DNA of 64,000 bases from a virus, in IMG/VR virus record IMGVR_UViG_3300045988_128600; one strand, 5' to 3'. The notes under the pieces are model-generated. The model was not told the origin of the DNA, did no database searches, and worked only from the letters and a program-made list of their open reading frames with translations. Positions 15,213 through 17,556 of the stretch are shown one piece after another. Every line of letters begins with the position of its first letter. Position 1 is the first letter of the stretch. The position numbers were made by a program, and so were the translations under genes.

Positions 15213-16505
15213 TTAATTTAATAATTCATCTATCCATTCTTGCTTCATATTATTTGGAAATTCTTTATCTATATTATGTTTTTTATAATATTTATTCCAA
15301 AATTCAATATTAGCAAGAGCACGAGCTTTGTGCATAGGACAAATATAAGTAACTCTTTTATTAAGAACGCCTGTTTCTTGATAATTGTAAGCTTGACACC
15401 AAGCGCAACCGACTGCAATGGGACATTCACGACATTCATCAGAAGATTGAGTATAAGAGTCAATGGCTTTTAACTCTCTTGTTAATTGTTTTTGCTCTTC
15501 TGTTGTTGCTATTTCATTTTTATTTACATTTCCTATAATAAGAGGTGGAACAGAATCACCTAAAGCATCTTCCATATAGCGTAAACAAGGATATAAATTA
15601 CCTGTATAGTTTAGAGCAATCATAGCTCCATTTCCACCGCACCAATTTTTTAGTTCATCTTCGTTAGACCAATCTTTAGGTCTAAAAAATTTTGAATCTG
15701 GATATTCAAAAAATGAAATATACACGTCTTCTTCTAAATCGTTGTCGAGAAGGTAATTTCCTAATTTAGTCAATTCTTTATAATAAATTTTAGCATAATC
15801 TAAATTCCACCCTTTTTCAAATACTACATTTCCTAATATAGATGTAAAACCTAAATCTAAAAGATTTTTTACAGCATCAAATAAATAATTTATATTACTA
15901 GGAGATAAAGTAACTTTGGAACAAGGATATTCTCCAGTTTTTTCTCGCCAATCTTCTATTGCTTTTACTACAATATTATAGCTACCTGAACCATCAGGAA
16001 ATTTTCTGCAAGCATCATGTAATTCTTTATTTCCATCAATACTAATAGAAACAGACAACCATTGTTTATATTTATCTAAAAATTTTTGCACTTTTGGATC
16101 AAAATATAATGTTCCATTAGTACAAATTAAAAATCTTGTAAAATAAATTAATGGACTATTCATTTCAATTAATTTAGAAATTGTATAATCCATTACTTTA
16201 TCTATTAAGTCTATATTTAAAAAAGGTTCTCCACCAATAAAATCAAAAATTAATCCTTTAACATTTTTTGGATTAAAATATTCATTTTCTTTAGGATTTA
16301 TTGCTATCATATCTATATAATTTTTAGCAGTTTCAAAATCCATTAAATGATTTTTTTTACATATTTGATAACAATAACTGCAACGTAAATTACAAGAATC
16401 GGTTACTTGTAATGTTATATCAAAAATTTTGTCATCTTTATCTGTTAATAATTCTGGATATAACCTTTGTACTGTATCGTTATACTGTTCGAATTTACGT
16501 CTCAT
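15213..16505 (-). CDS. radical SAM enzyme with a SPASM-like C-terminal Cys cluster, 430 aa
   Basis: CNLRCSYCYQ is a CxxxCxxC motif. The C-terminal segment CRECPIAVGCAWCQAYN...YICPMH is a SPASM-like cluster. Its ATG overlaps the TGA of the upstream gene as ATGA. Confidence 0.8.
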   Translation of the reverse strand: MRRKFEQYNDTVQRLYPELLTDKDDKIFDITLQVTDSCNLRCSYCYQICKKNHLMDFETAKNYIDMIAINPKENEYFNPKNVKGLIFDFIGGEPFLNIDLIDKVMDYTISKLIEMNSPLIYFTRFLICTNGTLYFDPKVQKFLDKYKQWLSVSISIDGNKELHDACRKFPDGSGSYNIVVKAIEDWREKTGEYPCSKVTLSPSNINYLFDAVKNLLDLGFTSILGNVVFEKGWNLDYAKIYYKELTKLGNYLLDNDLEEDVYISFFEYPDSKFFRPKDWSNEDELKNWCGGNGAMIALNYTGNLYPCLRYMEDALGDSVPPLIIGNVNKNEIATTEEQKQLTRELKAIDSYTQSSDECRECPIAVGCAWCQAYNYQETGVLNKRVTYICPMHKARALANIEFWNKYYKKHNIDKEFPNNMKQEWIDELLN

Positions 16506-16810
16506 TTTACATCATCATTAATGGTTACAATAATTGTTTGAGTTGAAAAATCAATACTCCAATAAGCATTATTGCCATATTTATTTAAACCATAATATTT
16601 TGTTACATCATTTCTAATTTTATCATATTCAATAAATTTTTCAACATATTCTTGATGATATCTTTTATAATTATCAGTATCCATATTATTAAATGAACTA
16701 CTATTCATCATATAAGTGATAATACTTTGACGAGCAAGAAGATCTTGATAAGCTCGTTCTAATTTATCATTTAATTCTACGTTATTAGCATTTACTGTAA
16801 TTGTTTTCAT
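16502..16810 (-). CDS. hypothetical protein, 102 aa, ends TGA
   Basis: ORF preceded by the RBS AAAAGGAGAAAAATA. Confidence 0.4.
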   Translation of the reverse strand: MKTITVNANNVELNDKLERAYQDLLARQSIITYMMNSSSFNNMDTDNYKRYHQEYVEKFIEYDKIRNDVTKYYGLNKYGNNAYWSIDFSTQTIIVTINDDVK

Positions 16811-16836
16811 TATTTTTCTCCTTTTTATCTTATAAA

Positions 16837-17556
16837 TTAACTTTTTAAATTTTTAGAATATAAAGATTTTAAAGCATTAATTGCTTTTTGCATTTCAGAT
16901 TTAGTACAGACATTTCCATTATAAGAAGTGTTCTACATTTTAGAAATATTTGTGAATATTTCGTTTTTTAAGTTTGTATTGACTTTAGTGTTAGAAGAAA
17001 CTTGTGTAGATAAAGGGCTATATCCACGCCTAAATAATTCTTTGTTTAGCATAGTATAAATATTAGCAATATCAGCAGCGTATAAAACAATTCTTAAATT
17101 AATAGAATTATAAAGATTTATATTAGCTGAAGTAGAGCATCCATTATCACACCCGCCAGTACAAGTACCAGTACAAGCAGAACAATCAAGCCTACAAGTA
17201 TCAGAGCAACCTTGACATCCTCCAGAACAACTTCCTGTGCAATCAAAACGACAAGCGGCGCTACAACCATCACAATCTCCTCGACAACTTCCAGAACAAC
17301 TACTAGAACATCCTGATCCGCAGTTTCCAGAGCAGTCACCTTGACAAGTAGAATCACAAGCGGCGCACCAATTACCACATGTACTGGAACATCCAGTATC
17401 ACAACCGCCTTCACAACTACCTTGGCAACCTCCCTAACAGACAGTGCCACAAGTTTCACAAAGAGAACAATTACCACCACAGCCGTTATCACAACCGTTA
17501 GTACAACTTATAGTGCACTATCCCTTGCACCCAACTGTACTACAATTACTAGCCAT
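16837..17556 (-). CDS. Cys-rich repeat protein of about 35 C-x3-C units with a C-terminal non-Cys domain, about 239 aa, 3 in-frame TAG codons, ends TAA
   Basis: ATG at 17556. Translation reads MASNCSTVGCKG(Q)CTISCTNGCDNGCGGNCSLCETCGTVC(Q)GGCQGSCEGGCDTGC...CTGGCDNGCSTSANINLY...ISKM(Q)NTSYNGNVCTKSEMQKAINALKSLYSKNLKS. The same CQGxC units elsewhere are spelled with CAA/CAG. Length 720 nt is divisible by 3. Confidence 0.55.

Follow-up and report, generated by a model that had tools for sequence, protein, structure and literature searches.

A probable CXXX-repeat peptide modification cassette with a 239-residue cysteine-ladder target in a TAG-recoded gut-type phage

The DNA analysed here (the window, 64,000 nucleotides of IMG/VR virus record IMGVR_UViG_3300045988_128600) belongs to a gut-type phage with TAG recoded to glutamine and carries a three-gene cassette, arranged on the minus strand in the order target (239 aa), accessory (102 aa) and radical SAM/SPASM maturase (430 aa). 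The cassette is best explained as the phage form of a known three-gene set, the CXXX-repeat peptide modification system, with the maturase and the accessory protein acting on a ladder of cysteines in the target, and we regard this reading as likely. By analogy with studied enzymes, the maturase and its helper most likely cross-link the 239-residue target. The target is new in form, being a protein and not a peptide, in which the Cys ladder is fused to a four-helix domain of ~100 aa. The first-pass annotation of this region had proposed a radical SAM/SPASM enzyme paired with a Cys-rich substrate; this overall reading was supported, and the cross-link chemistry itself would follow by analogy.

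The target gene was placed at 16837..17556 (minus strand) by translation and by its conserved frame, two genes upstream of the enzyme gene, where a Cys-rich protein of about 239 aa had been expected. Translated with TAG as Gln it encodes 239 aa, ends in a TAA stop and is preceded by an AGGAGG ribosome-binding site 9 nt upstream of the ATG. The protein has 37 Cys, and 36 of them lie within residues 5–140. This ladder (17137..17544, minus strand) is the presumed modification site. Its 35 Cys-Cys intervals comprise 28 C-x3-C, 6 C-x2-C and 1 C-x4-C, so that the earlier figure of about 35 CxxxC units was roughly right; with 28 of the 35 intervals at exactly four residues, the ladder has a tandem Cys-x-x-x periodicity. 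Between the Cys, G, S, T, D and N predominate, and acidic residues amount to 10 Asp and 2 Glu among the 136 residues, against 36 Cys.

The Cys frame upstream of the radical SAM gene was kept in eight related viral contigs of ~195 kb (L001 to L008), in three of them without TAG. Conservation in related phages, a check named with the first-pass annotation, was thereby confirmed. Differences from L001 were distributed over the three codon positions as 26/29/68, mostly at the third, and this was true of both the Cys and the C-terminal parts. The same architecture was common to 47 database homologues. Because the frame is kept in relatives, varies at third positions and recurs in these homologues, the target is not a chance open reading frame, and on the substitution pattern the frame is under purifying selection.

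Internal TAG codons were found in many long open reading frames of the window. A suppressor tRNA with anticodon CUA, which the three TAG codons of the target require, was detected by ARAGORN at 50980..51052 (minus strand). In an alignment of radical SAM orthologues, TAG faced CAA or CAG 11 times and AAA 3 times. The in-frame TAG codons of the target (all minus strand) are codon 13 (17518..17520), a variable position with Thr or Ser in the relatives, codon 41 (17434..17436), which is a Gln codon in L002–L008 and TAG in L001, and codon 208 within the helical domain (16933..16935), which is Gln in L001–L004 and TAG in L005–L008. Relatives have Gln codons at two of these three sites. By all criteria applied to the sequence, the window phage reassigns TAG to Gln (genetic code 15). 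A rule by which TAG codons would label the substrate a late gene product, and the enzyme an early one, was rejected, since the enzyme of L002–L008 has three TAG codons and the target zero to two.

In TAG-recoded phages, standard gene calling hides such genes. The target gene had been described as masked by three TAG codons and an antisense reading frame; the three TAG codons were verified, whereas the reading frame in question (17118–17492) is on the target's own strand, in a different frame.

For database comparison, the target and its helical domain were searched against Pfam and NCBIfam, which gave no match. Up to E 1, the 18-residue repeat model TIGR04114 did not match the window target; for L025, a relative of the same type, the score was 17.1 bits (cut-off 20), and precomputed matches to PF27846 (tSAM_targ_Cxxx_rpt), mostly weak, are on record for several homologues. 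PHROGs gave one weak match, to a family of unknown function. An AlphaFold model was made for homologue P0001, which is 82% identical to the window target. The model had no fold for the Cys ladder (pLDDT <50) and showed the helical domain as helices (pLDDT 70–87). A fold search with the target model against the PDB and viral predicted structures gave nothing better than E 0.26.

The C-terminal domain of ~99 aa (16840..17136, minus strand), predicted to form four helices, was delimited by alignment, AlphaFold and hhalign. Its motif A-x-D...E-x-x-R-R-G is conserved; in alignment A4, E173 is invariant and R176 and R177 are nearly so. Comparison with the N-terminal domains of commoner targets by hhalign gave a probability of 96.4% (E 1.1e-9), and on this profile match the two domains, C-terminal in the window target and N-terminal in the commoner targets of phages and prophages, are homologues. 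Among the viral loci, the Cys segment is N-terminal, as in the window, in 6 and the arrangement is the opposite in 49, which agrees with the earlier remark on the unusual N-terminal place of the Cys segment. In a profile search with the domain, 107 of 118 new matches were fused to Cys repeats; the remainder had no Cys region and were mostly truncated-looking. The domain was confined to phage and prophage targets and was retained throughout these. The invariant Cys columns, which are the best-conserved units, cluster beside it. Structure searches matched the domain to no known fold. The first-pass annotation did not include this domain, the database models (TIGR04114–04118, PF27846) or the loss of an upstream gene and promoter described below.

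The radical SAM/SPASM gene (15213..16505, minus strand) was assigned by TIGR04115 and Pfam matches. The encoded protein has the SAM-cluster motif C38-x3-C42-x2-C45 and a seven-Cys SPASM (C289-x12-G-x4-C307, C358-x2-C361-x5-C367-x2-C370, C389), and none of these cysteines varied among 6 diverse orthologues. Pfam Radical_SAM, Fer4_12 and SPASM all scored above cut-off (SPASM 21.9 vs 21.5). The previous description of a 430-aa enzyme with CxxxCxxC and a SPASM-type cluster was therefore accurate. The model TIGR04115 ("radical SAM peptide maturase, CXXX-repeat target family") matched with 401.1 bits (cut-off 350, E 5.7e-120) over model positions 4–359 of 359, and this match places the enzyme in the family over its full length. 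Lower scores, each under its cut-off, were obtained with the models for PapB (186.8 bits, cut-off 340), the SCIFF maturase (119.3 bits, cut-off 425), QhpD (95.1 bits, cut-off 453) and the anaerobic sulfatase maturase (73.8 bits, cut-off 349). A relationship to cofactor maturases had been named as the outcome that would speak against the pairing; the enzyme is nearest to peptide maturases (TIGR04115 401 bits, QhpD 95). To our knowledge, no TIGR04115 member has been characterised.

The enzyme also matches phrog_1802. Its closest solved structure is CteB (5WGG; E 3.5e-19), to which residues 22–395 were aligned, starting at CteB residue 91. As this alignment start shows, the phage enzyme has no N-terminal peptide-recognition (RRE) domain. 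Positions 13000–20000 were compared with 50,697 phage records by megablast without a match. Protein search of the phage records with the enzyme gave 8 distant matches only, namely four unannotated faecal contigs and four records (three enterobacterial jumbo phages, ~27% identity).

Between target and enzyme lies the accessory gene of 102 aa (16502..16810, minus strand). TIGR04116 aligned with its product end to end (10–89 of 90) at 17.2 bits and E 0.0042, below the cut-off of 50 bits. Using jackhmmer and profile searches, the protein was linked to small ORFs adjoining the radical SAM gene in 37 of 48 loci, and 15 of 27 such linked ORFs match TIGR04116 (best E 7e-30). At least 7835 accessory homologues were found in the database by profile search, named "CXXX repeat peptide modification system protein" by their sources. 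By these links the 102-aa protein belongs to the system, as a TIGR04116 accessory of divergent sequence. Its AlphaFold model (pLDDT 89.8) has a strand, two long helices and a beta-hairpin; this helical hairpin with a small sheet is unlike the known peptide-recognition fold, and structural search with the model gave no informative match. The gene was missing from the first-pass account.

The cassette is flanked by two predicted intrinsic terminators (both minus strand). One (15176..15214; 18-pair stem and T run) stands immediately 3' of the radical SAM stop codon and marks the operon end. The other (17809..17844; 15-pair stem and T run) lies 3' of the upstream SPFH/flotillin gene, forms the upstream border and is kept in relative L001. 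The accessory stop and the radical SAM start overlap in ATGA, which suggests translational coupling. The arrangement suggests a single transcription unit between the two terminators with the last two genes translationally coupled. All three open reading frames are intact and have good ribosome-binding sites.

Upstream of the target gene, DNA alignment with L001 and L002 identified a remnant of a 145-aa gene (17572..17739, minus strand), consisting of its last ~55 codons. Relative to L001/L002, a ~400-bp deletion in the window phage took ~110 codons of this gene together with the TGCTATAAT promoter. The intact gene was confined to the close relatives L001–L008, where it precedes the target gene, and their cassette has its own promoter. 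As it was found in closest relatives only, the 145-aa gene was rejected as a fourth core component. In the window copy one weak promoter-like site is left, behind the strong terminator. With promoter and neighbouring gene lost, expression in the window phage is uncertain. Rfam search of the intergenic region gave no credible match.

For analysis of co-occurrence, 80 viral loci were gathered by scanning viral contigs with the enzyme alignment. In IMG/VR the viral and prophage loci number at least 186. A same-strand Cys-rich ORF was present beside the radical SAM gene in 76 of the 80, which upholds the maturase-substrate pairing proposed earlier, and the accessory was likewise present at 76 of the 80. 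Enzyme and Cys-repeat ORF were also paired in most of 33 bacterial or prophage loci (at least 35% identity). The three genes thus travel together in phages, prophages and bacteria. In the bacterial loci four target types occur beside the same enzyme; these are short leader-plus-repeat peptides (~50–110 aa) or exported Cys-rich proteins, the helical domain is absent, and the Bacteroidales versions bear twin-arginine export signals.

In 8 loci of smaller phages or prophages, the cassette was located 3' of baseplate, tail-fibre or tape-measure genes, in several followed by holin and endolysin; in small temperate phages it lies between tail-fibre and lysis genes. A prophage of the cultured Neglectibacter timonensis SN17 (contig NZ_LT160640, around 0.93 Mb) is an example with the cassette in its tail module. 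In the window phage and its ~200-kb relatives, it is found among non-structural genes (SPFH, PhoH, phosphatase), outside the tail modules. An endolysin gene with 8 TAG codons is located two genes downstream in the window. Neither the cassette nor its neighbours contained a recognisable protease, transporter/exporter or immunity gene, in the window and 9 related contexts. Of the features strictly required of a RiPP (a cleaved leader or follower, a cluster protease and/or exporter), the protease and the exporter were not found.

The proposed course of modification follows PapB and CteB/Tte1186 by analogy. The enzyme would cleave SAM, yielding a 5'-deoxyadenosyl radical, and the auxiliary Fe-S cluster would bind the thiolate of a substrate Cys. 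The C-H bond of a nearby residue would then be attacked and a sulfur-to-carbon (thioether) bond formed. Repeated along the ladder, the reaction would give a string of small rings, and the product would be a rigid rod that resists proteases and is not opened by reducing conditions. On this analogy the ladder modification probably consists of multiple thioether cross-links. The helical domain may dock the substrate as a large leader or follower, perhaps together with the accessory; this is proposed because the enzyme has no fused recognition domain. Bacterial targets without the domain have the same enzyme and accessory, so that the domain may instead serve something other than recognition. The thioether is extrapolated from enzymes whose family models score only 119–187 bits. 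No experimental study of the CXXX-repeat system or of phage Cys-repeat targets was found in the literature.

Alternatively, the ladder could keep its Cys free and act as a metallothionein-like binder of metal or Fe-S clusters, while the enzyme performs Cys oxidation, epimerisation or methylation or merely shares the operon. With its Cys content (36 of 136 residues) and small polar spacers it resembles metal-binding sequences, AlphaFold gave no fold without ligands, and the enzyme is distantly similar to Cys-oxidising anaerobic sulfatase maturases (74 bits). However, this score is far under the cut-off of 349, the strict period of four is unlike the C-x-C and C-C patterns of metallothioneins, and enzyme, accessory and target are linked tightly and widely. 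The closest characterised relatives of the enzyme, moreover, all form thioethers from Cys (PMC9413430; PMC10177961), and a free-Cys binder is considered unlikely. Little probability is also given to a decaying relic, whose three genes were left unexpressed or no longer cooperating after the ~400-bp deletion. The loss of promoter and upstream codons relative to L001/L002 and the weakness of the remaining promoter-like site behind its terminator would fit such decay, but the three reading frames, their ribosome-binding sites and the ATGA overlap are intact and substitutions relative to the relatives fall chiefly on third codon positions. The lost gene, seen in the closest relatives only, is absent from the system elsewhere and hence not a core part.

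With the modification system as the preferred reading, the role of its product was judged from the gene neighbourhood only, and the target is most likely made late and destined for the outside of the cell. Among such roles we infer a component attached to the virion tail as the first candidate and a factor released at lysis as a close second. Tentatively, the Cys-ladder protein may be a structural part of the virion (tail fibre or whisker), with a rod of thioether rings anchored by the helical domain. It is also possible, with similar reserve, that the cassette is independently transcribed cargo (a "moron") and that its cross-linked protein is freed at lysis to act in a bacteriocin-like, signalling or host-modulating way. 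The terminators on both sides, the relatives' own promoter and the variable position by phage group (the tail-fibre/lysis junction, a classic cargo site, or the vicinity of SPFH, PhoH and phosphatase genes) fit cargo, as does the resemblance of the bacterial relatives' peptides and exported Cys-rich proteins to ordinary modified-peptide systems. Against it, the cassette and its flanks have no recognisable protease, exporter or immunity gene, and the targets far exceed the usual size of a peptide toxin (the largest viral ones reach 588 aa and 127 Cys). The helical domain, limited to phage and prophage targets and always retained there, also argues against cargo, as does a ladder whose repeat length varies among close relatives, like that of fibrous proteins.

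The CXXX-repeat system is large and common in gut Bacteroidales and Clostridia and their phages. The phage versions supply a biological setting for it, that of late genes near tail-fibre and lysis genes, and phage targets are unusually tractable substrates, with a folded handle and a long periodic ladder. A thioether-stapled fibre or a released factor, should the product prove to be either, would be a new protein material or weapon in phage biology. If the target is a virion part, this would be the first radical-SAM post-translational modification that builds a virus particle, and phages of anaerobes would gain a cross-link resistant to the reducing conditions of the gut. If the proposed reaction is true, the enzyme would be a highly processive cross-linking catalyst for a peptide-engineering toolbox that now relies on PapB.

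Among known systems, QhpD/QhpC provides the precedent of a radical SAM/SPASM enzyme that sets several Cys-to-Asp/Glu thioethers in a protein subunit, and not in a peptide antibiotic, before its exit from the cytoplasm (PMC10114670). QhpD is only distantly related to the phage enzyme (95 bits vs cut-off 453); QhpC is a small enzyme subunit with few cross-links, without a long periodic Cys ladder and without phage context. CteB/CteA (SCIFF, thermocellin, Clostridium thermocellum) shares the radical SAM core and SPASM, which align. CteB begins with a peptide-recognition domain of ~90 residues that has no counterpart in the phage enzyme, and the SCIFF substrate, with ~45 aa and six Cys, is unlike the 239-aa window target.

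PapB/PapA (freyrasin, a ranthipeptide of Paenibacillus polymyxa) likewise has a radical SAM/SPASM maturase and is the second-best family match. PapB makes Cys-Asp thioethers, by which the successive Cys motifs of PapA each become a small thioether ring (PMC9413430). In PapB and Tte1186, the substrate Cys or SeCys contacts the auxiliary cluster (PMC10177961). PapA has 6 Cys, whereas the window ladder has 36. The window target has neither the PapB-type Cys-x3-Asp/Glu motif nor an N-terminal leader, and the Cys-x3-Asp motif is inapplicable because position i+4 of the ladder is the next Cys; the ladder also has too small a number of acidic residues. Recognition also differs from PapB, with a separate accessory and no fused recognition domain.

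The closest counterpart is the CXXX-repeat system itself (TIGR04115/04116; targets TIGR04114/04117/04118 and PF27846), which was defined by comparative genomics. Its targets are peptides of ~50–110 aa or twin-arginine-exported proteins, whereas the window target has 239 aa and no N-terminal leader, the ladder starting at residue 5 and being followed by the 99-aa helical domain. The window system further differs in its TAG-recoded phage and in an accessory and target that score under the cut-offs of the CXXX-repeat models. Both have the same enzyme family, three-gene make-up and Cys-x-x-x target, and their accessory proteins are homologous.

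The cassette links a peptide maturase of the TIGR04115 family, a homologue of the TIGR04116 accessory protein and a conserved Cys-ladder target. The three genes lie consecutively between two strong intrinsic terminators, which form the upstream (17844-17809 (-)) and downstream (15214-15176 (-)) borders. The target gene (17556 down to 16837 (-), 239 codons) has a good ribosome-binding site and three in-frame TAG. It is followed by the accessory gene (16810-16502 (-), 102 codons), whose stop codon is overlapped by the ATG of the rSAM/SPASM gene (16505-15213 (-), 430 codons). In the standard ORF list the target gene is masked by an ORF at 17118-17492. 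The first-pass annotation had placed this ORF antisense, but it was found on the same strand as the target gene, in another frame. The window is AT-rich (G+C ~32%), and within the examined stretch all credible genes are on the minus strand.

The Cys-rich gene is real. Its product contains 36 Cys within residues 5-140, spaced by 4 (28 times), 3 (6 times) or 5 (once) and separated mostly by Gly, Ser, Thr, Asp and Asn, followed by a tail of 99 residues with a single Cys. Nine related viral contigs were retrieved with the enzyme as query, eight of them close (enzymes 87-90% identical to the window enzyme, contigs up to 197 kb). The hidden Cys frame proposed at first pass was kept in all eight close contigs, where it precedes the genes for the 102-aa protein and the rSAM enzyme, and contains no TAG in three of the eight. 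Window TAG codons 41 and 208 correspond to Gln codons or TAG in relatives, and nucleotide differences fall mostly at third positions of the Cys frame (26/29/68 by codon position against the close relative L001, with the third-position excess in ladder and tail alike). A homologue search, suggested in the same annotation, yielded 47 database proteins with this architecture, in which 2-24 residues precede a ladder of 80-137 residues (21-37 Cys) and a tail of 100-120 residues closes the chain. A functional name for these homologues was absent in every source examined.

Numerous long ORFs of the window are visible only with TAG as a sense codon. Using ARAGORN, 29 tRNA genes were called in an array at 35293-60633 (-), with a suppressor tRNA (anticodon CUA) at 50980-51052 (-) and no tRNA-Gln with normal anticodon among the 29. 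At 60563-60633 it made an unusual call, with an anticodon of two bases. In relatives, the enzyme gene has TAG aligned with CAA/CAG in 11 cases and with AAA in 3, which fits TAG being read as Gln. The rSAM genes of the close relatives L002-L008 (locus coordinates 5001-6290; 1148-2437 in L004) have three TAG each, against between zero and two in their target genes. This inverts the pattern of the window, and the position of TAG inside the cassette is thus not fixed. A gene adjoining the tRNA array (33721-35316 (-)) matched phrog_850, 'RNA-binding protein', with 451 bits and by eye has a Ro/TROVE-plus-vWA-like appearance. Together with an RNA ligase gene also in the window (phrog_968, 24668-26050 (-)), it hints at a module for RNA repair or quality control.

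The first-pass view of the enzyme as a SPASM-type peptide-modifying protein was supported by Pfam (Radical_SAM, Fer4_12, SPASM) and by NCBIfam, where it scored 401 bits against TIGR04115 ('radical SAM peptide maturase, CXXX-repeat target family'; curated cut-off 350). All other NCBIfam families stayed far under their cut-offs, among them PapB (187 bits, cut-off 340), SCIFF maturase (119 bits, cut-off 425), QhpD (95 bits, cut-off 453) and anaerobic sulfatase maturase (74 bits, cut-off 349). C38, C42 and C45 of the SAM cluster and seven SPASM Cys are conserved without exception in six orthologues (38-88% identity). Among solved structures, that of the SCIFF maturase CteB (5WGG) is nearest. Since the alignment begins at CteB residue 91, the phage enzyme is without the N-terminal peptide-recognition domain of CteB.

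For the 102-aa protein, an end-to-end match to TIGR04116 ('CXXX repeat peptide modification system protein') was obtained, with 17 bits only. Iterative searching of the ORFs of all fetched loci linked it to a small enzyme-adjacent ORF in 37/48 loci, and 15/27 of the linked small ORFs are clear TIGR04116 members. Its profile retrieved at least 7835 proteins, to which NCBI and JGI give the same protein name as TIGR04116. The AlphaFold model is confident (pLDDT 89.8) and comprises a strand, two long antiparallel helices and a beta-hairpin; no likeness to solved structures beyond generic helical hairpins was found. Nor is it a PqqD-like recognition element.

An enzyme alignment was used to fetch 80 bacterial and 80 viral loci. 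A same-strand Cys-rich ORF within 6 kb of the enzyme was present in 76/80 viral loci, as was the accessory (76/80). Across bacteria, prophages and phages, four target types were distinguished. Type A, which occurs in prophages of Clostridia and the majority of viral contigs, has an N-terminal domain of ~105-120 aa, then a Cys ladder of 40 to >450 residues; in type B, including the window target, the ladder precedes the domain. Type C (Bacteroidales proteins) carries a twin-arginine export signal before the ladder, and type D comprises short peptides of 50-110 aa with leader and ladder, the classical picture of TIGR04114, 04117 and 04118. Among viral loci, type A was counted 49 times and type B 6 times, with no same-frame domain detected in 21; an N-terminal Cys segment is thus as unusual as initially remarked. 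In locus L009, the target gene is split across frames (3303-4328), with the N-terminal domain and first Cys units in one frame and the long Cys run continuing in another. Several viral loci, such as L106, L107, L109 and L113, have a Cys ORF without domain, and in their sister contigs a single ORF contains the two. Assembly indels in repeats, decay or programmed frameshifting could be the cause. Among viral targets, some very large stop-to-stop ORFs occur, of 588 aa with 127 Cys (L140, 3880-5646) and of ~900 aa with 88-96 Cys (L163, 2607-5312; L177, 7811-10486).

The tail of the window protein is homologous to the heads of type A targets (hhalign probability 96.4%, E 1.1e-9, 92 columns), and both have an A-x-D...E-x-x-R-R motif. 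A profile of this domain retrieved 165 proteins, 118 not previously collected. Of these, 107/118 belong to type A, and the remaining 11 lack a Cys region and look mostly truncated; the domain thus accompanies Cys ladders and hardly anything else. The AlphaFold prediction has four helices in the domain (pLDDT 70-87) and shows the ladder without structure; neither PDB nor the viral predicted structures yielded a fold match.

In smaller phages and prophages, the cassette is in the late region. It follows baseplate apex, sheath initiator, wedge and tail-fibre genes in a Clostridium MAG. In Neglectibacter timonensis it lies between sheath initiator, Baseplate_J, wedge and tail-collar fibre genes and a collagen-like tail fibre gene. 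Two siphovirus-like contigs have it between tape measure plus three or four further genes and holin genes, two others between tailspike-like genes and holin plus endolysin, and one after the gene for a 2302-aa protein. The cassette's location in the window, as in two further TAG-recoded contigs (~180-205 kb), is between SPFH/flotillin and PhoH/PIN genes, and PhoH is followed by an endolysin gene. The window endolysin (11754-13127 (-), lysozyme-like and amidase parts, eight in-frame TAG) is two genes downstream of the cassette. On this synteny alone, a tail-associated product is the first choice, with release at lysis a close second. The SPFH/flotillin gene directly upstream (17848-19233 (-)) has 47% G+C against ~22-36% in the flanking kilobases, and a Band_7 gene is a few genes from the cassette also in L012 and L014 (~200-kb TAG-recoded contigs), which suggests recent host acquisition or a functional link.

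DNA comparison with L001 and L002 revealed that ~400 bp are missing directly upstream of the window target gene (deletion point ~17740, between 17739 and 17745). The deletion took the promoter TGCTATAAT and most of a 145-aa gene, of which the last ~55 codons remain (17572-17739). The three core ORFs are intact, and expression of the window copy is uncertain because of the lost promoter. The 145-aa gene is confined to the closest relatives and was therefore ruled out as a core part of the system. A G+C-rich intergenic element at 17745-17800, containing GCGATCGGCCGTAGTTCCAAT, is unique within the window and nearly identical in L001 and L002, within an otherwise AT-rich spacer; an Rfam search with it gave no credible match.

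PapB joins Cys sulfur to the Asp beta-carbon in six Cys-x3-Asp motifs (PMC9413430), and for both PapB and Tte1186 a contact between the substrate Cys and an auxiliary cluster precedes C-S bond formation (PMC10177961). By analogy, the phage enzyme would install numerous thioether rings in the ladder. It cannot follow the motif of PapB, since the next Cys occupies position i+4 and the ladder is short of acidic residues. Because the enzyme has no recognition domain and ladder units are best conserved adjacent to the helical domain, we propose that this domain would dock the substrate, whether placed before or after the ladder. Against this, bacterial targets manage without it, so that the domain may have a phage-specific role such as attachment or oligomerisation.

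The CXXX-repeat system is already modelled in NCBIfam and Pfam, and a literature search returned no experimental or descriptive paper on it or its phage versions. The cassette is of interest since the system itself is uncharacterised and the phage setting unexpected. By the enzyme, the window cassette is a member of this system. Its target is a distinct variant: protein-sized, with the ladder first, a follower domain and a TAG-recoded phage as its carrier.
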